In this document: piece after piece, positions 14,479-28,242 of the stretch | Numbering within the stretch: position 1 is the first letter of the stretch | Layout of the letters: each line of letters opens with the position of its first letter | NCBI GenBank assembly: GCA_026225095.1 | Contig: JAMFSC010000072.1 | Coordinates: 383-64,382 of the forward strand | Direction: 5' to 3' | DNA length: 64,000 bases | Source: a bacterium | Lineage (GTDB): Bacteria; Acidobacteriota; Terriglobia; Terriglobales; Acidobacteriaceae | Translations under genes and position numbers: made by a program | The notes under the pieces: model-generated | Database searches by the model: none | What the model saw: the letters and a program-made list of their open reading frames with translations, nothing else | Told to the model about the DNA's origin: nothing

Positions 14479-14538
14479 CTTGTATTCGATGGCCGGGTGT
14501 CATCGGTCGAGAATTGTTCTATTCTCTTTGATAACCCG

Positions 14539-16932
14539 ATGGCCAAGACCGAAGCACCAAAACCGATACTCGGGACCTCTCCCCTCCGAAAAGAGGGCGT
14601 CGCCAAGGTTCTGGGTGCGACCCGTTATATCGACGACATTGCGCTGGACGGGATGCTGTTTGGCGCGACGGTGCGGGCGTCGATCGCTCGGGGTCGCATC
14701 CTCGATATCCAATTCGAACAGAAGGATGACCTGGGCAATCCGATCGACTGGTCGAAGTTCACGATTGTGACGGCCAATGACATTCCCGGGGAGAACACAA
14801 TCGTCCACCTGACCAAGGATCATCCCTGCCTGGCTGCTGAGTTCATCAACCATCCGGAGGAGCCGATCCTGCTGCTGGCGCACCGCGAGAAGGCGATGCT
14901 TCCGGCTGCGGTTGCGGCGGTGAAGATCACGTACGAGGAGTGGCCTGGGGTCTTCACCATCGAGGACTCGGAGGCGGGGATCGAGCGGGCGAAGGCGGGC
15001 GATGAAACAGGTGTGATCTGGCGCGGGCATGGGCATGGCGGCGGGAACAATACCTTCAAGACCTACTGCATGTTGAAAGACCAAACGGAGATTCCAGAGA
15101 GCGTGTGGGCCGAGGCCGCATACATCGTCGAGGGGGAGTACCGGACGGGGGCGCAGGAGCAGCTTTACATCGAGAACAACGGTGTGATCGCAGAGTGCGT
15201 CGTGGCCGATGAAGCCGTGCAAGAGGTGACGGTGCAGGGCTCGATGCAGTGCCCGTTCTATCTCGTCCACGCGCTGGAGCTTGTGTTCAATTTACCCGCC
15301 GACCGGTGCAGGGTGATCCAGGTGGAGACGGGAGGGGCATTCGGGGGTAAGGAAGACTTTCCTTCCGTGATCGGATCGCACGCGGCGCTGCTGGCGATGA
15401 AGTCTGGGCGGCCTGTGAAGATGACGTACGACCGGGCGGAGGACATGGTCGCGACGACCAAGCGGCATCCCTCTCGAACGCGGCATCGCACGGCGGTGGC
15501 GAAGGATGGCAGGCTGCTGGCGGGGGAGATTGAATTTGTGATCGATGGGGGAGCTTATGCGACGCTGTCTCCGGTGGTGCTTTCGCGCGGGGTGATCCAT
15601 TCTCCGGGGCCCTATGACTGGCCCTATCTGCGCGTGGATGGGAGGGCGGTGGCGACCAACGTTGCTCCGCATGGGGCGTTTCGCGGCTTTGGGGCTCCGC
15701 AGAGCATCTTCGCGGTGGAACGGCATATGGACAAGATCGCCGGGGTAGTGGGAATCACTCCGGAGGAGATGCGGCGGAGGAACTTTCTAAAGTCTGGGGA
15801 GAAGACGGCTACGGGCCAGCATCTTTCGGACCCAGTCGATCTACAGGGGCTACTGACGCGGGCGCTGCGCGAGGCGGACTATCACCGGAAGCGCGAGGAG
15901 TTTGCCCGGACCAACGTGGGGGCGGTCGTGAAGCGTGGGATTGGGTTTGCGAGCTTCTTTCACGGATCTGGATTTACGGGGTCGGGGGAGCGGCGGCTGA
16001 ACTCGCTCGTCGAGATCGAGCTGAACGCGGAGGGGATGCCGAACATCCTGGTTTCCTCGACGGAGTTTGGGCAGGGGACGAACACGATCCTGTGCCAGGT
16101 GGCGGCGCAGACTCTGAAGATTCCCTATGACGATGTGCTGATTGCCCAACCGGATACTTACCGGGTTCCTAACTCGGGACCGACGGTGGCGAGCCGGACG
16201 GCGATGATCGTGGGCAAGCTGGTGGAGCGGGCGGCCGAGCAGCTTTGTGTCACCCTGGTGGGGTCGGGCTTTCTGGCCGAAGGGTATACGGGCGAGGAGT
16301 TCAAGGACGGGGCGAAGCGGTATCTGGCTGCGAACGGGGCGTTGAAGGCGAGCGTGCGGTACCAGGCTCCGGCGGATATCTTCTGGGATGACGAGCAGTA
16401 TCGGGGGGATGCGTACCCGGCGTATGCGTGGGCAGTCTATGTGGCTGAGGTCGCTGTCGATACGCGGACCTACCAGGCGACGGTGACGGACTTTCATGCG
16501 CTGCAGGAGGTGGGCAAGGTCCTGCATCCGAAGCTCGCCGCCGGGCAGATTGAGGGTGGGGTCGCGCAGGGGATCGGGTATGCGCTGTACGAGAAGTGCG
16601 TGTGGCAGAACGGGCGGATGGCCAATAACCAGATGACGAACTACATTATGCCGACGAGTGCGGATCTGCCACCGATTCATGCACATTTCGAAGAGGTGCC
16701 GTCAATCCATGGCCCGGGCGGGGCCAAGGGGATTGGGGAGCTGCCGATGGATGGGCCGGCTCCGGCGATCCTGAATGCGATCGAGCAGGCGACGGGCATT
16801 GCGTTTGGAGAGATTCCGCTGCTGCCGGAGGATATCTTCGCCCGGATGACGGGAACCGACGGGGCGGAGAAACTAAATCCGGACGTGATGGAGCCCGCGA
16901 TTGCCGCGGCGGTGGGCGAGGTGGGGGATTGA
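14539..16932 (+). CDS. Xanthine dehydrogenase/aldehyde oxidase family, molybdopterin-binding large subunit
   Basis: Family blocks are present (LRKEGVAKVLGATRYIDD, GGAFGGKE, GFGAPQ, GQIEGGVAQGIGYAL, PMDGP). The start could instead be GTG 14497. Confidence 0.9.
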   Translation: MAKTEAPKPILGTSPLRKEGVAKVLGATRYIDDIALDGMLFGATVRASIARGRILDIQFEQKDDLGNPIDWSKFTIVTANDIPGENTIVHLTKDHPCLAAEFINHPEEPILLLAHREKAMLPAAVAAVKITYEEWPGVFTIEDSEAGIERAKAGDETGVIWRGHGHGGGNNTFKTYCMLKDQTEIPESVWAEAAYIVEGEYRTGAQEQLYIENNGVIAECVVADEAVQEVTVQGSMQCPFYLVHALELVFNLPADRCRVIQVETGGAFGGKEDFPSVIGSHAALLAMKSGRPVKMTYDRAEDMVATTKRHPSRTRHRTAVAKDGRLLAGEIEFVIDGGAYATLSPVVLSRGVIHSPGPYDWPYLRVDGRAVATNVAPHGAFRGFGAPQSIFAVERHMDKIAGVVGITPEEMRRRNFLKSGEKTATGQHLSDPVDLQGLLTRALREADYHRKREEFARTNVGAVVKRGIGFASFFHGSGFTGSGERRLNSLVEIELNAEGMPNILVSSTEFGQGTNTILCQVAAQTLKIPYDDVLIAQPDTYRVPNSGPTVASRTAMIVGKLVERAAEQLCVTLVGSGFLAEGYTGEEFKDGAKRYLAANGALKASVRYQAPADIFWDDEQYRGDAYPAYAWAVYVAEVAVDTRTYQATVTDFHALQEVGKVLHPKLAAGQIEGGVAQGIGYALYEKCVWQNGRMANNQMTNYIMPTSADLPPIHAHFEEVPSIHGPGGAKGIGELPMDGPAPAILNAIEQATGIAFGEIPLLPEDIFARMTGTDGAEKLNPDVMEPAIAAAVGEVGD

Positions 16933-17408
16933 TGGCGGGCTTAGCTGCGGTGAGGTTTCGGGTGAATGGGGTGGAGCGGACGGTGGAGGCTCCTCCGGTG
17001 AAGAGGCTTCTGGATGTATTGCGCGAAGATCTGCAACTGACCGGAACCAAGGAGGGCTGCGGCGAGGGAGAGTGCGGATCGTGCGCGGTGCTGATGAATG
17101 GGGAGTTGGTGAACAGCTGCCTGGTCCCGGTGCTGCAGGCGGAGGGGGCAGTCGTCTGCACGATTGAGGGTGTCTCCGTCGATGGACGGCTGGCGCCGGT
17201 GCAGCAGTGTTTTCTGGAAGAGGGTGGGGCGCAGTGCGGAATCTGCACGCCGGGGATGATTCTTGCGACGCATCATCTGCTGGAGAAGTATCCGCAACCG
17301 ACCTTGTTACAGATTCAGGAAGGGCTGGCCGGGAATCTGTGCAGGTGTACGGGGTATATGCGGATCTTCGAGGCGGTTCGGCAGGCGAGCGAGCGGGGTA
17401 GAGACTAA
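16932..17408 (+). CDS. (2Fe-2S)-binding small subunit of molybdenum hydroxylase
   Basis: Both cysteine clusters are present (GCGEGECGSCAV and CGICTPGM...CRCTGY). Its start overlaps the stop of the large-subunit gene (TGATG). Confidence 0.9.
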   Translation: MAGLAAVRFRVNGVERTVEAPPVKRLLDVLREDLQLTGTKEGCGEGECGSCAVLMNGELVNSCLVPVLQAEGAVVCTIEGVSVDGRLAPVQQCFLEEGGAQCGICTPGMILATHHLLEKYPQPTLLQIQEGLAGNLCRCTGYMRIFEAVRQASERGRD

Positions 17409-18268
17409 TGCGGTCGAACCCTGCGCACTATGAGATGGTCGCACCTGCGACGCTCGACGATGTCCTGGCTCTGCTTGCGCACGCTCCCGGGGTGCATACG
17501 CCGATGGCGGGTGGGACGGAGTTGATGGTGGCGCTGGGCGCGGGAAGGCTTGCGACGCGGCGGCTGGTCTCGATCAACCATCTGCGGGAGCTGCGGTTTA
17601 TCTCCACGGACGACGGGTTGGTCACGATTGGGTCGGGAACCACCTTCAGCGATGTGCGGCGGAGTGCGGTGATCGCGGCGGAGTTTGGGCTTCTGGCGGA
17701 GGCGGCGAGTTGGACCGGGTCAGTCGCGAATCAGAACCGGGGAACGCTCGGGGGGAATATCGTCAATGCGAGCCCGGCGGCGGATTCGCCACCCGCCCTG
17801 CTGGCGTACGACGCGGAGGTTCGGCTGGTCAGTGTGCGCGGAATGCGGACGCTTCCCTACCGGGAGTTTCACCTGGGATATAAGAAGACGGCGCTGGAGC
17901 CGGATGAGCTGGTGCACTCGATTGTGCTTCCGCGGGTGTACGCGGGATGGGTAGGGTACATCCGCAAAGTTGGAACTCGGAACGCGCAGGCGATCTCGAA
18001 GGTCGCGTTGGCGGGACTGGCGAGGATGGAGGGCGGACGGGTGCGGGATGTGAGGATTGCCGCGGCCAGTCTGCGAGAGATACCGGTGCGGTGTCTGGCG
18101 ACCGAAGCGGCGGTGATAGGGAGGGAGATTACGGCGGAGACGATTCAGGCGGCGCGGGTGGCGATGATGAGGGAGGCTCGACCGATTGACGACATTCGGA
18201 GCTCCGCGAAGTATCGCGCTGCGGTAGCGGGAAACCTGGTGGAGGAGTTCCTGAGGCGACTGCTTTAG
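17408..18268 (+). CDS. FAD-binding medium subunit of molybdenum hydroxylase (CoxM/XdhB-like)
   Basis: FAD-binding PCMH-type blocks are present (AGGTELMV, GTLGGNIVNASPAADS), with a C-terminal SSAKYRAAVAGNL. A TAATG overlap joins it to the upstream gene. Confidence 0.9.
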   Translation: MRSNPAHYEMVAPATLDDVLALLAHAPGVHTPMAGGTELMVALGAGRLATRRLVSINHLRELRFISTDDGLVTIGSGTTFSDVRRSAVIAAEFGLLAEAASWTGSVANQNRGTLGGNIVNASPAADSPPALLAYDAEVRLVSVRGMRTLPYREFHLGYKKTALEPDELVHSIVLPRVYAGWVGYIRKVGTRNAQAISKVALAGLARMEGGRVRDVRIAAASLREIPVRCLATEAAVIGREITAETIQAARVAMMREARPIDDIRSSAKYRAAVAGNLVEEFLRRLL

Positions 18269-18291
18269 AACAGATTGCCTGTTGGCATCAA

Positions 18292-18350
18292 GTCGGGTGC
18301 CCCACCTTCGCGACACGTCTCATCGTCGCTAAGGTGGGTCGGAGCGCCAC
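18292..18350. repeat. REP-like imperfect palindrome, copy 1
   Basis: The sequence is GTCGGGTGCCCCACCTTCGCGACACGTCTCATCGTCGCTAAGGTGGGTCGGAGCGCCAC. The arms CCCACCTTCGCGAC and GTCGCTAAGGTGGG pair with one mismatch. A near-identical inverted copy lies at 23067-23125. Confidence 0.85.
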
Positions 18351-18368
18351 GGTACCCGACCCGGAACC

Positions 18369-18753
18369 CTACACCTTCAGCGAATCCGCTCCTGGAGCTA
18401 TTCTCCATTCGCTGTGGTCTTCAGGACCGAAGGCCCGACATATAAGGAGCGCAACCACACCTCCGGGAGAATTGTTTTAGGAAAGCCCTGATCGAGTCGA
18501 CCATGTTGACCCTCGGACAGAGCCAGGCTGTCCGATAATCGAAGCAAAAACATACCACTTTCCTATTCGCGGTTTCTGTCCAGTTTTTCCAGGCAAAGTA
18601 CCACGTTGTGCGATCAAAAAGTCTCTGGCAAAACATTGGCAAATCAGCAACCGCCGCCCATAACCCCTTTAGAAAACCACGATTACAGCGATGCATCGAA
18701 AATGATGCAAAACAAACCACTTTATTAGAAAAATTCTACCCAGTGGTCCTACC
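18369..18753 (-). repeat. Conserved non-coding element, copy A (candidate structured RNA read on the minus strand)
   Basis: Its reverse complement aligns end to end with 21857-22206 through long identical blocks (see findings). No reading frame is shared between the two copies. Confidence 0.8.
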
Positions 18754-18796
18754 TATAGTTCGGTCCAGGAACTAAACCAAAACACATTCCATTCCT

Positions 18797-19381
18797 TCAA
18801 ACGTCAGAAGTTCCGTAGCTGGATTGGGTCGAGAAGAGGCGGTGCATGGCGGCGAGATCTTCGGGGGTGTCGACGTCGAGGTCGCCATGGGGCAGGGGGA
18901 TCGTGGGCGCGGACTGGAGGAGCGCGCGGGCTCCTGCATCGCCTTTGAGCGCACAAAGCGCAGGGAAAGTTGACGCGGGGAAGAAGGCGGGGACACCTTT
19001 GCAGCCGGCGTAAGCCGAGGCGGTGAGAGTTCCTCCGGCCACGAGTGCTTGAAGATGGCCTGGGGTCACCGTGGGCATGTCGCAGGTGAGGACCAACGTG
19101 GAATCCTTACCGTGGAGTGCGGCAATGGCGAGGCGGAGGCTGGAGGCCATGCCTTCTTGCCAGTCTGGGTTGATCAGAATCTGGGTGTCGGGCAGGGGGC
19201 AAGCCTGCTGGATGCGGGCGGCGTTGGCTCCCAGAACGACGACGATGGGCGCGCAGCCAGCCTCGCGAGCGGTGCGAATGGCTCGGTCGAGTAGGGTTTC
19301 CTGCTGGAGGGAGACGAGTTGTTTGGGGGAGCCGAGACGCGTGGAGGCTCCCGCGGCCAGGATGATTGCGGCAGAGGTCAC
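18797..19381 (-). CDS. MobA/MocA-like molybdenum cofactor nucleotidyltransferase
   Basis: The signature AAIILAAGASTRLGSPKQL is present, with a downstream TCDMP block. A GTG start at 19381 overlaps the xdhC stop (GTGA). The ORF track extends further upstream, into xdhC. Confidence 0.8.
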   Translation of the reverse strand: MTSAAIILAAGASTRLGSPKQLVSLQQETLLDRAIRTAREAGCAPIVVVLGANAARIQQACPLPDTQILINPDWQEGMASSLRLAIAALHGKDSTLVLTCDMPTVTPGHLQALVAGGTLTASAYAGCKGVPAFFPASTFPALCALKGDAGARALLQSAPTIPLPHGDLDVDTPEDLAAMHRLFSTQSSYGTSDV

Positions 19382-20680: not shown

Positions 20681-21679
20681 TTATTTGCCTGCGCCTGCTT
20701 TTGTCTTCGACATCAGGGCGTCGACGTTGGTCTGATCGATGAGGGATACTCCAGTATCCACGAACGATGGGAAGGGCGAGAACGGATCGAGTGCGTAGTC
20801 GTGGGAAAGCGGCGTGACGGGGGTGTGGTTGATCTCATCGAGGGCTTTGAGTCCGAGAAAGGCCATGCTGAAGGGCTTCTGGGCGATGGTCGAATCGACG
20901 GTTCCACGCCGGACTAGGTCGAGGGTCGGGTCGTCGGTATCCATGCCGATGAGCACGCGCCCGGTGGACTTCATGCGTTCGAAGATCTCGCCGACGTCCT
21001 TGGCCGCCGAGGCCTCGAGGCAGACGACGGCGTCGATTTTTTCAGCGCCGGTCCGACCAAGATAATCTTTTGTCTTGTCCATGGCGGTGCCGGCGTCGCC
21101 CTTCATGTCGAAGACCTCGACGACCTTGATGCCGGGAAATCCGGCGAAGACGTCCTTGTACCCTTTGAGGCGCTCGTCGAGGTTGGGCTGGCCGGGGTTG
21201 GAGAAGAAGACGACGTTGCCTTTGCCATTGAGTACGGCGGCAAGGCGTTGGCCGCCGAGGCGACCGGCCGCGAGGTTGTTGGTCCCGATGAAGTAGAGGC
21301 GATGACTCTCGGGCGAATCGGAGTCCATCGTGATGACCGGAACTCCGGCGGCAATGGCACTGTCGATCTCGGGCGCCATGAGGGGTGAGTTGCTGACTGA
21401 AACGAGGATTCCGGCGGGCTTGAGGGCGGCTACCTTGTGGAACTCGGCTACTTCGGCCTGCGGATCGAAGGTTTCTGGTCCGACCATTTCGGCGGTGACG
21501 CCGTACTGGTCGGCAGCCTTCGCAAACCCCGCCCGCGCGTTTTGCCAATAGGTCAGTTTGACGTTGGTGGCGACGAGGTAATAATGCTCCGCCTTGCTGT
21601 GGCGGGTGCACCCCGATAGAAGTGGAAGTACGGCGGCAAGGAAGATCCAGGCCATCCGGTCGTTTGCAGTCCTCATCAT
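20681..21679 (-). CDS. Periplasmic sugar-binding lipoprotein (ABC-type, RbsB-like); no permease or ATPase gene is adjacent
   Basis: A lipobox is present (LPLLSGC). The sequence is type-I periplasmic binding protein-like throughout (YYLVATNVKLTYWQ, VFFSNPGQPNLDER). Confidence 0.8.
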   Translation of the reverse strand: MMRTANDRMAWIFLAAVLPLLSGCTRHSKAEHYYLVATNVKLTYWQNARAGFAKAADQYGVTAEMVGPETFDPQAEVAEFHKVAALKPAGILVSVSNSPLMAPEIDSAIAAGVPVITMDSDSPESHRLYFIGTNNLAAGRLGGQRLAAVLNGKGNVVFFSNPGQPNLDERLKGYKDVFAGFPGIKVVEVFDMKGDAGTAMDKTKDYLGRTGAEKIDAVVCLEASAAKDVGEIFERMKSTGRVLIGMDTDDPTLDLVRRGTVDSTIAQKPFSMAFLGLKALDEINHTPVTPLSHDYALDPFSPFPSFVDTGVSLIDQTNVDALMSKTKAGAGK

Positions 21680-21856
21680 CGCTCTCCTGAAAGATTGATC
21701 GTCGCGGATTTGAGTAACTCGCATTCGTTATTCCTGCGAGGGGCCGATGTTACTCCAACCGTGCGAAGGTAGACAATGCCCGCTTTCGCGACCCGATGAT
21801 CGCGGGGAGGTGGCAGCGGACACGGAGAAAAAAGGGGGCGCGTTTCCAGCCTAAAT

Positions 21857-22206
21857 GGTCGGACCTCTTGGCTTTATTCTTCTAATAAAGTGGTATGAAA
21901 TCGCTGCTTTTTCCCAACTTCCCGCATCCATGGTTTTCTAAACGGGTTAGCAGGCAACGATGCGAATTTCCCAATGTTTCACCAGGAGTTTTTTGTGTGC
22001 AGAACATGGGCCGTTGCATGGAAAAACTGGACAGCGGGCGGTGTTTTCGAAAGTGGTATGCTCTCGTGCGTTTATCGCGCAGTTGAAGGCATTCAGCCCG
22101 CGGTCGTTCGCAGGCAAGGAACCCGGGCCTTACCCAGGTCGGGCCTTCGGCCCTGACGGCACGGCGATTGGAGAATCGTTCTAGAGCGGATTTGGTGCTG
22201 GTGTAG
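21857..22206 (+). repeat. Conserved non-coding element, copy B (candidate structured RNA read on the plus strand)
   Basis: It shares blocks with copy A: TTCTAATAAAGTGGT, TGGTTTTCTAAA, TGGAAAAACTGGACAG, GAAAGTGGTATG, GTCGGGCCTTCGG, GAGCGGATT and GGTGTAG. A GGGCC-TTCG-GGCCC hairpin lies at 22141-22154. Confidence 0.8.
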
Positions 22207-22282
22207 AGGAAAACAAACGCAGATTCCCTACGGGAATGACAGACAGAAGGGCAAAGACCACTACAGCAAGGCTGACTTTGCT

Positions 22283-22996
22283 CTAGCTCTTGTGGGAGAA
22301 GGTGTGGATGCCGCACTCGAGCTTGTTGCCTCCCCAGCGTCCGCTGCGGGGATCGGCTCCGGCGGCGGGGATTGCGGTGCAGGGCTCGCAGCCGATGCTG
22401 GTGTAGCCGCGGTCGTAGAGCTCGAGGCGGGGAATCTGGTGCTCTTCGGCGTAGGCGTTGACCTGGGCCATGGTCCAGTCGGCGAGGATGGAGACCTTTT
22501 TCATCTTCTTGCCGGTGGGGGTGGTGTGGTCTTCCACCTTCTTGAGATTGGCTCGGGTTGGGGATTGCTCGCGGCGGAGGCCGGTGAACCACCAGTCGTA
22601 GTGCTCGAGCGAACGCATGAGGGGCTCCACCTTGCGCATCTGGCAGCAGTTGGTGGGTTGAACGATGTGGAGTTTGCCGTACTGGCCCTCGTGCTCTTCG
22701 AGGGAGAGGAGGGGCATGGCGTTGATGAGGTTCAGGTTCCACTCGGCGGTGAGGCGGTCTCGGTAGGCGAGGAGCTCGGGGAAGTGGTAACCGGTCTCGA
22801 GGAAGATGACCGGGACCGTGGGGAACTGCTGGCGCAGGAGATGAAGGACGACCATGTCTTCGGTCTGGAAGCTCGAGGTCAGGCAGATGGGGGCGCCGTC
22901 GGCGTCCGCAAGGACCTGGGCGATGAGGGCCTCGGGGGCGAGGGTTTCGTAGTCGATGGGAGCTAGCCAGTTGGCGACGGTTTCTACGAGGCTCAT
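22283..22996 (-). CDS. cysH: Assimilatory adenylyl-sulfate (APS)/PAPS reductase; the Cys pattern suggests the Fe-S APS reductase type
   Basis: The C-terminal ECGIH motif is present, together with the Cys pair NCCQ and the CEPC motif. These are typical of [4Fe-4S] APS reductases. The start is at the MSLVETV methionine. Confidence 0.9.
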   Translation of the reverse strand: MSLVETVANWLAPIDYETLAPEALIAQVLADADGAPICLTSSFQTEDMVVLHLLRQQFPTVPVIFLETGYHFPELLAYRDRLTAEWNLNLINAMPLLSLEEHEGQYGKLHIVQPTNCCQMRKVEPLMRSLEHYDWWFTGLRREQSPTRANLKKVEDHTTPTGKKMKKVSILADWTMAQVNAYAEEHQIPRLELYDRGYTSIGCEPCTAIPAAGADPRSGRWGGNKLECGIHTFSHKS

Positions 22997-23066
22997 CGTT
23001 GCGCTTCCTTTGCGTTTGTAGACTACTTCAGAAACAGAGCGGATTTGGTGTCTACGGCTGGGTGCT

Positions 23067-23125
23067 GTGGCGCTCCGGCCCACCTTAGCGACGATGAGAC
23101 GTGTCGCGAAGGTGGGGCACCCGAC
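23067..23125. repeat. REP-like imperfect palindrome, copy 2 (inverted relative to copy 1)
   Basis: The sequence is GTGGCGCTCCGGCCCACCTTAGCGACGATGAGACGTGTCGCGAAGGTGGGGCACCCGAC. This is the reverse complement of 18292-18350 with one substitution. Confidence 0.85.
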
Positions 23126-23229
23126 TTTATACCAACGGGCTTTATACCAACGTGCTTTATACCAACGTGCTTTATACCAACGGGCTTTATACCAACGTGT
23201 TCTAAACCAACGTGCTCTAAACCAACGTG
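23125..23229. repeat. Tandem repeat, 7 x 15 bp (CTTTATACCAACGKG; the last two units are TTCTAAACCAACGTG and CTCTAAACCAACGTG)
   Basis: I counted the units directly: 23125, 23140, 23155, 23170, 23185, 23200 and 23215. The array lies between the cysN stop and the cysH start. Confidence 0.95.
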
Positions 23230-23238
23230 CAATCTGGT

Positions 23239-24921
23239 CTAGTTATGGGATTCGCTGGGGGTGGGCACGGATTCACTGAGGCGAAGGACGGATGGCCCGG
23301 CGACGGCGACGGTTGCGGCTTCGGTCTCAGGATCGAGCAGGCGGCTGGTGATGGCGATGACACCGGCGAGTTGGAGGGCTCGAACGACAGCGGGGAGGCT
23401 CGAGTCGGGGATGTCCGGGTGGTCGATCAGGATGGCGCGATCGCCTCCGGCGAGGAAGGCCGCGAGGATACGTTCGGCATCCTGCGGACGGCCGGGGAGG
23501 AGGCAGAGGACGGGTCGGGTGGAGACCTCGGGAGTCGGGGCGTCGGATGTTGAATCAGATTCAGGGACAGTCACGGGGCCGAGAATCATGACAGCGCCCA
23601 CCGTGGCGTTGGTGATGGCGTCGATGAGGATGAGTGAGCCGGTGGCGCGACAGATGGTATAGGGATCGAAGAAGAGAGGGAGGTTGGTCTCGAATTCAAC
23701 CTCGCCGACCTCGTTCATGTTGAGGGTCTCGGCGGCGACGTGGTCGAGGGTGCCGACGTCGACCCGGGAGGTGAGGGCACGGACCGTCGCGCGGACGGTG
23801 CGGGTGGTGTGCTTGGCGATGTAAGTGCGGCCTGGGGCCAGGGGGTCCTCGTGCATCCAGACGACCATGGCGGAGAAGCGGGTGGCGATGGCGGGTTCGG
23901 ACTCGCCGGTGGGGCTGGCGGCTACAAGCATCTCGCCGCGGGAGAGGTCGATCTCGTCTTCGAGCTCGACGGTGATGCTCTGGGGATAGGCGGCGGCCGG
24001 GAGGTCTCCGTCGTAGGTGACGATGCGTTTGACCACGGACTCTTTGCGGGAGGGCAGGGCCATCACACGTTGGCCCGGACGGAGCACTCCGCGAGCGACC
24101 TGTCCGGAGAAGCCTCGGAAGTCGAGGTCGGGGCGCTGGACGAGTTGGACGGGGAAACGGAGGGGCGCGGCGTCTTCCTCGGCGAGGCTGGTGGCGGTGG
24201 CGAGGGGAACGGTCTCGAGGTAGTCGAGCAGCGTGGGGCCGTCGTACCAGGGCATACGCAGGCTGGGGTTGACGACGTTGTCACCCTCCAGTGCGCTGAT
24301 CGGAATCATGCTGACGGACTTGAGATTCAGGCGGGAGGCGAGGGCAAGGAACTCCTGCTCGATCGACCGGAAGGTCTCTTCGGAGTACCCGGCGAGGTCC
24401 ATCTTGTTGACCGCAGCGACGACGTGGGGGATGCCAAGGAGGCTCGCGATGGTCGTGTGACGGCGGGATTGGGGGAGCAGCGTCCCGAGGCGGAGGAAGG
24501 CTCTCGCGTCGATGAGAACGATGGCGACGTCGGCCGTGGAGGCGCCGGTGGCCATGTTGCGGGTGTACTGCTCGTGGCCCGGGGTGTCGGCGATGATGAA
24601 CTTGCGTTTGGCGGTGGAGAAGTAGCGGTAGGCGACGTCGATGGTGATTCCCTGCTCGCGTTCGGCCTTGAGGCCGTCGGTGAGGAGGGAGAAGTCGACG
24701 TGGCCTCCGGAGGCCCGGTTGACGCGGCTGGCAGCGACGGAGGCGAGCTGGTCTTCGTAGATCGACTTGGTGTCGTGGAGGAGGCGTCCGATGAGGGTGG
24801 ACTTGCCGTCGTCGACGGAGCCGGCGGTGGTGAAGCGGAGCATCTCCTGCGAGAGATGGGAGTCCAGAAACTGCTCGAAGGTTGGGGCGACGGGCGCGGG
24901 GGTGATGATGTGGCTGGCCAT
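23239..24921 (-). CDS. cysN: Sulfate adenylyltransferase subunit 1 (GTPase) with a ~110-aa C-terminal extension
   Basis: The G1 motif TTAGSVDDGKSTLIGRL and DTPGHEQYTRNM are present, with EF-Tu-like domains II and III. The gene starts immediately after the cysD stop (TAAATG). Confidence 0.9.
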   Translation of the reverse strand: MASHIITPAPVAPTFEQFLDSHLSQEMLRFTTAGSVDDGKSTLIGRLLHDTKSIYEDQLASVAASRVNRASGGHVDFSLLTDGLKAEREQGITIDVAYRYFSTAKRKFIIADTPGHEQYTRNMATGASTADVAIVLIDARAFLRLGTLLPQSRRHTTIASLLGIPHVVAAVNKMDLAGYSEETFRSIEQEFLALASRLNLKSVSMIPISALEGDNVVNPSLRMPWYDGPTLLDYLETVPLATATSLAEEDAAPLRFPVQLVQRPDLDFRGFSGQVARGVLRPGQRVMALPSRKESVVKRIVTYDGDLPAAAYPQSITVELEDEIDLSRGEMLVAASPTGESEPAIATRFSAMVVWMHEDPLAPGRTYIAKHTTRTVRATVRALTSRVDVGTLDHVAAETLNMNEVGEVEFETNLPLFFDPYTICRATGSLILIDAITNATVGAVMILGPVTVPESDSTSDAPTPEVSTRPVLCLLPGRPQDAERILAAFLAGGDRAILIDHPDIPDSSLPAVVRALQLAGVIAITSRLLDPETEAATVAVAGPSVLRLSESVPTPSESHN

Positions 24922-25854
24922 TTAGAAGTAGCCCTCGCGCTTCTTGACTTCCATGCTTCCCTCTTCGTCGTGATCGATGGCGCGGTTCTCGCGCTCGGAG
25001 CGGCGGAAGGTCATGAGCTCTTCGATGATCTTGGGCAGGGTGTCGGCGTCGGAGCGCATGGCGCCCGTGCAGGGGAGGCAGCCGAGCGAGCGCATGCGAA
25101 CCTTCTGGGTGGTCACCTTTTCGCCGGGGAAGAGCTTGAGGCCATCGTGGTAGAGCGTGGTCTGGCCGCCGCGGTTGATCACTGGGCGGTCCTGCGCGAA
25201 GTACAGGGGCACGATCGGGATCTTCTCCGCGTAGAGGTAGAGCCAGATGTCGAGCTCCGTCCAGTTCGAGAGCGGGAAGACCCGGATGGACTCGCCCTTG
25301 CGGAGACGGGAGTTGTAGAGGCTCCAGAGTTCGGGGCGCTGGTTCTTCGGGTCCCACTGGCCGGCGGAGTCGCGGAAGCTGTAGACGCGCTCCTTGGCGC
25401 GGGACTTCTCTTCGTCGCGGCGGGCTCCACCGAAGGCTGCGTCGTAGCCTCCGGCCTCGAGGGCGTCGAGGAGGGCGCGGGTCTTCAGCAGGCCGCAACA
25501 GTTCTGGGTTCCGAGCTCGTACGGGTTGGCTCCGCCGGCGATGGCCTGCTCGTTGCGGTGGACGACGAGGTCGGCGCCGATCTCTTTGGCGTAGGCGTCG
25601 CGGAAGGCGATCATCTCCGGGAACTTGTAGCTGGTGTCGATGTGAAGGAGGGGAAAGGGGATCTTGCCGGGGTAGAAGGCCTTCTGGGCGAGGCGGAGCA
25701 TGACGCTCGAGTCCTTGCCGATGGAGTAGAGCATGACCGGGCGGGCAAACTCGGCGACGGCCTCGCGGAGGATCGCGATGGACTCGGCCTCGAGCGCCTG
25801 CAGGTGATTGAGGCGGGCGGGGAGGGCCTCTTCGGCGAGATGAGTGGACGCCAT
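24922..25854 (-). CDS. cysD: Sulfate adenylyltransferase subunit 2
   Basis: PAPS-reductase-fold blocks are present ([42 protein letters not shown]). The start is set at the MASTHL methionine. Confidence 0.9.
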
Positions 25855-26192
25855 GATGGGGGATTCGAGCGTCGCGGTGCTTTCGGCAGTCTGGTAGGTC
25901 AACGAACCCTCCTCCTCATCCTGCAAAAAGGAAGGATGGAAGCTGGCTGGAATGTGTGGTCGGGGAGATGCGGCGGATGAACCCGAGATGCTCTAGCGGC
26001 GTCCACAGGGATAGCGTGAGATGTTCGGGGGACCACAACACCCGCAGTCCGTGCAGTGGTTCATCCAGTCGATTATAGCGAATCCGCTGGCCGATCTCCG
26101 GGAGAAGGGGTAGTTCCAAAATGGCAAATGTGTCATGGCGTATGGACTATCGAAGTAGATACCGCCCCGCAGACTGGCGGATTGCCGGCTTC

Positions 26193-28067: not shown

Positions 28068-28242
<175 letters not shown>

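Follow-up and report, generated by a model that had tools for sequence, protein, structure and literature searches.

The described systems closest to the repeats reported here are the BIMEs of E. coli and the RIMEs of rhizobia. These elements are extragenic, non-coding and present at high copy number in variable combinations of modules, and they are often located between convergent genes. They carry palindromic REP-type units beside non-palindromic motifs and have neither terminal inverted repeats (TIRs) nor target-site duplications (TSDs). Also relevant are the BOX elements of Streptococcus pneumoniae (boxA-boxB-boxC) and the bcr elements of the Bacillus cereus group. These are 100-400 nt in length, modular, intergenic, lineage-restricted and non-coding, and they occur in tens to ~100 copies in which modules can be present, absent or repeated. 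BOX and bcr1 have a stable predicted fold and are MITE-like, and TIRs and TSDs are found in some families.

GTAG-tagged REPs and TIR repeats are tied to Y1 transposases (RAYTs and TIRYTs), which include an acidobacterial TIRYT group (PMC3733652). The same study also covers mosaic intergenic regions (PMC3733652).

We analyzed a contiguous stretch of 64,000 nucleotides (64 kb; hereafter the window) from a bacterial genome of the Acidobacteriaceae, in which two related stretches, termed copies A and B, are inverted relative to each other. The two probably belong to one family of interspersed, non-coding mosaic repeats in this genome that is specific to its lineage. The family is not known to have been described, and the kind of feature is ordinary. 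It is best filed as a new lineage-specific family within the known class of bacterial interspersed mosaic repeats.

Like BIMEs and RIMEs, copies A and B are extragenic, high-copy, non-coding and modular, have REP-type palindromes alongside, and lack TIRs and TSDs. In contrast, the main module of these copies (M1) is ~230 nt long, largely non-palindromic and much larger than BIME linker motifs. BIMEs and RIMEs have no sequence similarity to M1, and no RAYT or TIRYT partner was found here. The copies share with BOX and bcr elements a modular, intergenic, lineage-restricted, non-coding and multi-copy character, but neither a stable fold nor TIRs or TSDs are seen. The resemblance to GTAG-tagged REPs and TIRYT repeats is that the composite element ends in GGTGTAG near palindromes, and that both are TSD-less and clustered with other repeats. 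However, the GTAG is 7-19 nt away from the nearest palindrome rather than adjacent to it, M1 forms no 20-40-bp stem-loop, and no transposase gene lies beside the modules within the window. The imperfect palindrome of 20-40 bp that defines a REP basic unit, and that bears a GTAG or CGTC tag in many families, is not found in M1; only a hairpin repeat at 18277-18357 and the core of a further module, M3, are palindromic.

An inverted pair between xdh and cys genes

Genes near the two copies were assigned with Pfam. The region is organized as follows, with positions numbered in the window:

14497-18268, plus strand: molybdopterin dehydrogenase genes (large, 2Fe-2S and FAD subunits)
18277-18357, no strand assigned: palindromic REP-like hairpin repeat of ~81 nt abutting copy A; inverted partner at 23060-23140, arms 93% complementary
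18369-18753, minus strand: copy A of the composite element, aligned end to end with copy B at 76% identity
18797-~19383, minus strand: MobA-like
19378-~20510, minus strand: XdhC
20681-~21680 (also given as 20681-21724), minus strand: periplasmic binding protein (PBP), Peripla_BP_4
21857-22206, plus strand: copy B of the composite element, found by repeat arms, alignment, blastn and nhmmer
22283-23083, minus strand: CysH
23239-24921, minus strand: CysN
24922-25926, minus strand: CysD

Copy A is located between the convergent ends of the FAD-subunit and MobA genes and is preceded by the palindromic repeat, and copy B separates the start of the binding-protein gene from the end of cysH. The 5' ends of both copies face the pbp-xdhC-mobA block. 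Both intergenic regions have a G+C content of 43-50%, compared with ~64% for the genome.

Alignment of the reverse complement of 18340-18800 with 21820-22260 (MAFFT) gives a mean column identity of 76%. The similarity starts abruptly at GGT(A/C)GGACC (18753 and 21857) and stops at GGTGTAG (18369 and 22206), beyond which the flanks are unrelated. A repeat search of the window recovered the inverted arms as I2, I3, I7, I8 and I9. The two best pieces shared by the copies have E values of 1e-14 and 8e-11 by blastn within the 64-kb window, and copy A matches a two-copy profile with E=1e-120 (nhmmer). No third copy of the element was found in the 64 kb by window-wide blastn and nhmmer searches.

Several blocks are shared exactly. 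The block TGGAAAAACTGGACAG is identical in both copies (22019-22034 in B, 18576-18591 in A) and absent elsewhere from the window, and GTCGGGCCTTCGGNCCTGA is likewise exact and confined to the two copies. The motif AAAGTGGTATG occurs twice per copy, with one mismatch in copy A, and nowhere else in the window. Shuffled sequence is expected to hold 0.02-0.4 occurrences of these three blocks, and the observed numbers are far above this expectation.

A preliminary description of this DNA had reported an inverted pair that aligns end to end, and the alignment bears this out. All of the conserved blocks it listed are present in both copies, as are the spacer of equal length (36 nt) and the submotif found twice per element, which is AAAGTGGTATG. 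The two hairpins it singled out are also in place, CGGACAG-CCTGGCT-CTGTCCG at 18515-18535 in copy A and GGGCC-UUCG-GGCCC at 22141-22154 in copy B.

The same description found no ORF common to both copies, and we agree. Open frames are offset by a 1-nt indel, and a search in six frames found no protein relative. A coding function was considered as a candidate, since both copies contain several open frames on the T/G-rich strand. It was rejected because the indel shifts these frames relative to each other and no homologues were found. Neither the 99-aa frame nor all 12 frames joined gave a protein relative among 5.8 billion sequences.

Copy number and modular composition

The sole public run that contains the locus is a root-nodule DNA metagenome, coded X1. 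Contigs of this run were matched to both regions at ≥80% identity, and 188-210 contigs match each copy and 378-454 contigs match each 700-nt region. Flanking genes have a flat summed contig depth of 16-18. The parts of the two copies and their depths in this run are:

21857-22088, plus strand: module M1 in copy B, ~230 nt, the main body of the element; depth 400-5100 versus a baseline of 16-18; 210 contigs
~18520-18753, minus strand: module M1 in copy A; depth 350-1860 versus a baseline of ~20
22008-22034, plus strand: most abundant M1 core, which contains TGGAAAAACTGGACAG; depth 4258-5129, roughly 130-300 genome equivalents
21887-21897, plus strand: left AAAGTGGTATG in M1 of copy B, direct motif
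22050-22060, plus strand: right AAAGTGGTATG in M1 of copy B, direct motif
18713-18723 and 18551-18561, minus strand: AAAGTGGTATG in copy A, direct motif
22089-22132, plus strand: single-copy spacer in copy B; depth 18, equal to baseline
~18475-18519, minus strand: counterpart of the spacer in copy A, including most of the 18515-18535 hairpin; depth 20.7 at 18475-18489
22133-22180, plus strand: low-copy module M2 with the UUCG hairpin (22141-22154); depth 37-84, ~2-5 copies
~18392-18444, minus strand: counterpart of M2 in copy A
22181-22285, plus strand: module M3, a separate high-copy family; depth 568-7369

The depth of M1 is 25-300 times baseline with at least 20 distinct flanks, and these depth-based copy numbers could be raised up to ~2-fold by contig overlap and further by co-occurring strains. 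Because overlap may inflate depth to this extent, the safe statement is that M1 is present in tens to a few hundred copies per genome. The preliminary description called the element present twice. This is correct inside the window but not for the genome, in which most of the element occurs at tens to hundreds of copies.

Individual modules are also found on their own. A stand-alone M1 copy that matches 21853-22080 is located on one 5.7-kb contig of run X1, and internal M1 copies matching ~18518-18701 are present on contigs of 4.4-5.3 kb. Stand-alone units of M3 match 22180-22284, 22184-22254 and 22191-22285 on contigs of 1.3-12 kb. The left edge of M3 at 22184-22206 (GAGCGGATT..GGTGTAG) is the last block of the element, and copy A has only this edge (18369-18391). 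By depth, the layout of copy A matches that of copy B. The two AAAGTGGTATG motifs of M1 are spaced by 163 nt in copy B and by 162 nt in copy A. Positions 18430-18474 of copy A, a stretch of ~45 nt, have a depth of 235-322, which is roughly 12-18 times baseline. This stretch may be another small repeat module, with no counterpart in copy B.

The edges of the modules were located from the points at which contigs depart from the two copies; family variation, orientation bias and exact ends are all read from aggregated contig data of one metagenome. Exactly at 21856, 20 contigs leave copy B for unrelated flanks, with a flank consensus agreement of only 0.55. Therefore, at least 20 separate loci have the same 5' edge. 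At the 5' edge of copy A, 15 contigs diverge at 18754. On the 3' side of M1 in copy B, 10 contigs diverge at 22080 and 6 at 22088, and a 5'-truncated subfamily of M1 begins at 21997 (10 contigs).

Modules are joined in other combinations and orders elsewhere in the genome, and the arrangement is extragenic, high-copy and variable in order, as is characteristic of BIME-type repeats. On five other contigs, 22037 is joined straight to 22180-22200. Further joints on other contigs connect 22088 to 22181 and 18391 to 18522, and joints that go back place M3 or the hairpin repeat ahead of M1. Because the modules differ in depth, edges and joints, the 350-385-nt unit is a patchwork of at least three independently repeated modules and not one element. 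Within the family, copies A and B both represent the "long form" and resemble each other fairly closely.

Orthologous sites and a proposed route of spread

A collection of 185,579 species genomes contains no close representative of this genome. In this collection, the closest orthologues of the binding protein and the FAD subunit come from Acidobacteriaceae (Edaphobacter, Granulicella, Tunturiibacter) and have only 56-73% amino acid identity. M1 was found at 0 of 160 loci of relatives (blastn, nhmmer). Patterns made from pairs of conserved blocks gave no match among the 185,579 species genomes for blocks 4+5 or for blocks 1+2, and the 24 matches for blocks 3+4 were all due to chance. One scan of metagenome contigs returned three chance matches on low-GC contigs, and M1 was not found in plasmid and phage collections.

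The gene order around the copies recurs in relatives as XDH L-S-M (plus strand) followed by MobA, XdhC, CysH and CysN (all minus strand). A comparison anchored on the FAD-subunit gene (XDH_M) reveals that the gap between this gene and MobA has a median of ~1 nt in 47 related genomes versus 528 nt here, where the hairpin repeat and copy A take up this space. In 18 relatives, XdhC lies next to CysH with a median gap of 32 nt versus 1771 nt here, where the gap contains the binding-protein gene, copy B and M3. Thus, both copies occupy sites that are essentially empty in relatives. Orthologues of the binding-protein gene are not syntenic in 80 relatives and are located elsewhere, without any of these neighbors. 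From its position, the binding-protein gene next to copy B looks like a lineage-specific relocation.

The family combines high copy number, sharp edges and modular recombination with absence from relatives and empty orthologous sites, and from this distribution of copies we infer that the modules are mobile. Each copy combines the ~230-nt M1, a spacer unique to that copy, the few-copy UUCG module and the edge of a second high-copy family. Each copy adjoins an additional REP-like palindromic repeat. The copies were inserted into short gaps, one at the convergent end of xdh and mobA-xdhC and the other beside the newly acquired binding-protein gene, and their inverted orientation around three genes is incidental. 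In the mechanism that we propose, the modules may spread as non-autonomous selfish DNA that is moved in trans by an enzyme encoded elsewhere. Any effects at the RNA level, such as hairpins that act as terminators or stabilizers, would be a by-product and not the reason for conservation.

The absence of TIRs and TSDs points away from cut-and-paste transposition by a DDE enzyme and toward a route that is either REP/BIME-like or single-strand (HUH/Y1-type), in which modules presumably recombined to build the mosaics. Such a route would be likelier than a DDE enzyme because TIRs and TSDs are absent, REP-like palindromes adjoin the copies, and Y1 TIRYTs are known in Acidobacteria (PMC3733652). The absence of TIRs and TSDs also fits HUH/Y1 elements derived from IS200/IS605. 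A hairpin is located 14-16 nt from the 5' end in both copies, with different pairing partners in each, and the flank consensus from 15-20 contigs contains no conserved target tetranucleotide. Since M1 has no recognizable TIR or TSD, it is a reasonable subject for studying how such repeats move in Acidobacteria, where Y1 "TIRYT" enzymes are known.

Competing explanations and neighboring repeats

One alternative is that M1 or the whole 350-385-nt unit is a multi-copy gene for a structured small RNA, encoded on the strand favored by the preliminary description (plus for copy B, minus for copy A), and that its sequence is kept for RNA structure. We consider this unlikely. The two-copy RNAalifold consensus has a predicted energy of -46.8 kcal/mol on the proposed strand versus -25.2 on the opposite strand, and it includes 11 pairs with double changes on the proposed strand, a count that comes from two sequences only. 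In this predicted fold, pairing joins conserved blocks 2, 3 and 4. These predictions favor a structured RNA, but the minimum free energies of the individual copies are ordinary. On the proposed strand, copy B has an MFE z-score of +0.67 and copy A one of -1.16; the opposite strand gives -0.76 for copy B and -2.29 for copy A. A folding energy clearly below that of shuffled sequence was not found for either copy.

Searches with Rfam 15 also argue against a known structured RNA. At the gathering threshold, no match was found at either copy in a search of the whole window, and three nested sub-regions examined at E≤10 likewise yielded no family at threshold. These searches covered Acido-Lenti-1 (RF01687), which the preliminary description had put forward for comparison. 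This RNA comes from the same phylum and has a weak match in both copies on the proposed strand. However, its scores of 15 and 12.6 bits are below the gathering score of 37, only a generic GCC-UUCG-GGC hairpin is aligned, and model positions 1-20 (the 5' portion) have no base-for-base alignment to the copies. Membership in this family was rejected because the match is sub-threshold and involves the terminal tetraloop hairpin alone.

Variation within the family provides another view of the predicted fold. Up to column 210 of the copy-B alignment, window positions were obtained by adding 21856 to the column number. In run X1, eight of the positions that lie in predicted helices are variable at ≥7% of the family depth. 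At four of these, the variant breaks a predicted pair with the partner unchanged: 21935 T>G (67%), 21943 C>A (50%), 21998 T>C (77%) and 21964 G>A (90%). Variants at the other four (21929 C>T, 21930 A>G, 22005 C>T and 22006 A>G) remain pairable via wobble or transition only. The majority variants 22005 C>T and 22006 A>G keep their pairs as G-U on the proposed strand only, which is what an RNA on that strand would predict, but this strand is G+T-rich and this in itself favors G-U pairing. In the aggregated contig data, no compensatory double change is visible at the eight positions. Family variation, taken as aggregated data and not as per-copy sequences, does not support a conserved structure.

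The preliminary description had also drawn a strand argument from the UUCG hairpin, which still pairs after a change from G-C to G-U. The retained pairing speaks for an RNA, but the hairpin belongs to a module of only ~2-5 copies that lacks informative variation; no base variation is listed among these few copies in the contigs of run X1. In addition, neither a sigma-70-like promoter nor a consistent terminator was found, the copies are absent from the orthologous loci of relatives, and copy numbers differ widely among the parts of the mosaic unit.

The earlier interpretation offered a structured RNA or a repeat family that carries one, and only the repeat-family part of it stands. With no Rfam family, ordinary folding energies, four of eight variable pairs broken and a mosaic unit, the structured-RNA half is left without support. 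The repeat-family half is stronger than could be known from one window, since the element is dispersed at high copy number, has a sharp 5' edge and fills gene gaps that are empty in relatives. Read from one window alone, the feature looks like a conserved, paired RNA gene; with its copy number across the genome and the empty sites in relatives taken into account, it turns out to be repeat DNA of an ordinary kind.

Some RNA-level constraint may still act on the family, as suggested by the four retained pairs, all kept as G-U wobble on the proposed strand, and by the stronger predicted consensus fold on that strand. An extension of this idea, which we judge to be improbable, is that M1 is an undescribed non-autonomous element without TIRs or TSDs whose core is kept as RNA on the G/T-rich strand. 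If true, the core could guide, or act as a scaffold for, a recombinase of an RNA-guided or single-strand type whose gene lies elsewhere in the genome; alternatively, it could be a regulatory small RNA present in many copies. In that case, the restriction of tolerated changes to wobble and the direct AAAGTGGTMTG motifs close to either end of M1 would serve as functional signals.

These motifs were also considered as candidate promoters, since TGGTATGYT has the look of an extended -10 box. The right-hand motif in copies like B reads TCTG through 22058 A>C (86% of depth), and 18715 A>G (93% of depth) has the same effect on the left-hand motif in copies like A. Because family variants turn the motif into AAAGTGGTMTG, they argue against a -10 promoter box. 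The candidate was rejected on this basis and because a consensus scan gave no sigma-70 site.

A classical MITE, which is a deletion derivative of an insertion sequence with a DDE transposase, bears TIRs and TSDs and moves by cut-and-paste, is a very unlikely explanation for the two copies. M1 does resemble a MITE in being small, non-coding, multi-copy and dispersed, and it is intergenic with a sharp 5' edge. The bases just outside this edge are A/T-rich at both copies in the window (AAAT| and TATA|). However, its two ends do not form inverted repeats. The 5' end reads GGTCGGACCTCTTGG, unlike the reverse complements of the 3' ends, which are CTGCGCGATAAACG (M1) and CTACACCAGCACC (composite). 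Inspection by eye and the repeat search revealed no TIRs between the termini of M1 or of the composite, and the motif that recurs close to the two ends of M1 does so in direct, not inverted, orientation. No duplicated flank is present at either copy; direct repeats common to the two flanks were absent at each candidate boundary of copies A and B. No target motif emerges from the flank consensus of 15-20 contigs, and no transposase is found beside the modules within the window. Since TIRs and TSDs are absent, the copies are not the plain MITE that the preliminary description had defined by these features.

It is most improbable that the inverted copies act together, whether they bound a composite mobile unit of ~3.9 kb or an invertible pbp-xdhC-mobA segment. 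Their 5' ends do point toward the three-gene block, and none of the relatives examined has the binding-protein gene at this position. However, MobA and XdhC are placed and oriented with respect to XDH and CysH as in 18-47 relatives, which is the ancestral arrangement, and therefore the block was not brought in as a unit by the copies. In addition, the arms are just 76% identical and broken by copy-specific inserts, the same modules occur at many other loci, and no contig joint in run X1 has the inverted arrangement.

The favored reading, a mosaic repeat family, places the two copies in an acidobacterial genome that is packed with several interspersed repeat families and apparently has no public species-genome representative. 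By depth, M1 and M3 each amount to hundreds of equivalents and the REP-like hairpin to more than 1000. Repeats of this kind break short-read assemblies, mislead the prediction of non-coding RNAs and genes, and can supply terminators or recombination substrates. The short-read contigs of run X1 do break at these repeats.

The REP-like hairpin repeat next to copy A is a compound palindrome with the sequence GTCGGGTGCCCCACCTTCGCGAC...GTCGCTAAGGTGGG...ACCCGAC. Its depth in run X1 reaches ~23,500 versus a baseline of 16, which suggests more than 1000 genome equivalents, to which other strains may contribute. The core of M3 is CAGATTCCCTACGGGAATGACAGACAGAAGGGCAAAG. On the minus strand, M3 is predicted to form a terminator-like hairpin followed by a T-run at 22232-22218, directly after cysH, and from its sequence this hairpin looks like a terminator. 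M3 and the hairpin repeat, unlike M1, have weak relatives in other Acidobacteriaceae, and a search of a plasmid collection found a 43-nt match to the M3 core with 88% identity on a Granulicella tundricola plasmid.

Two other features of the window were recorded. A tRNA gene at 28068-28141 on the plus strand (67 bits) is the sole Rfam match at the gathering threshold in the 64 kb. Between cysN and cysH, a 15-nt tandem repeat, CTTTATACCAACGTG, extends over 23125-23230 in 7.1 copies with 92% matches, and it directly adjoins the second copy of the hairpin repeat (23060-23140).
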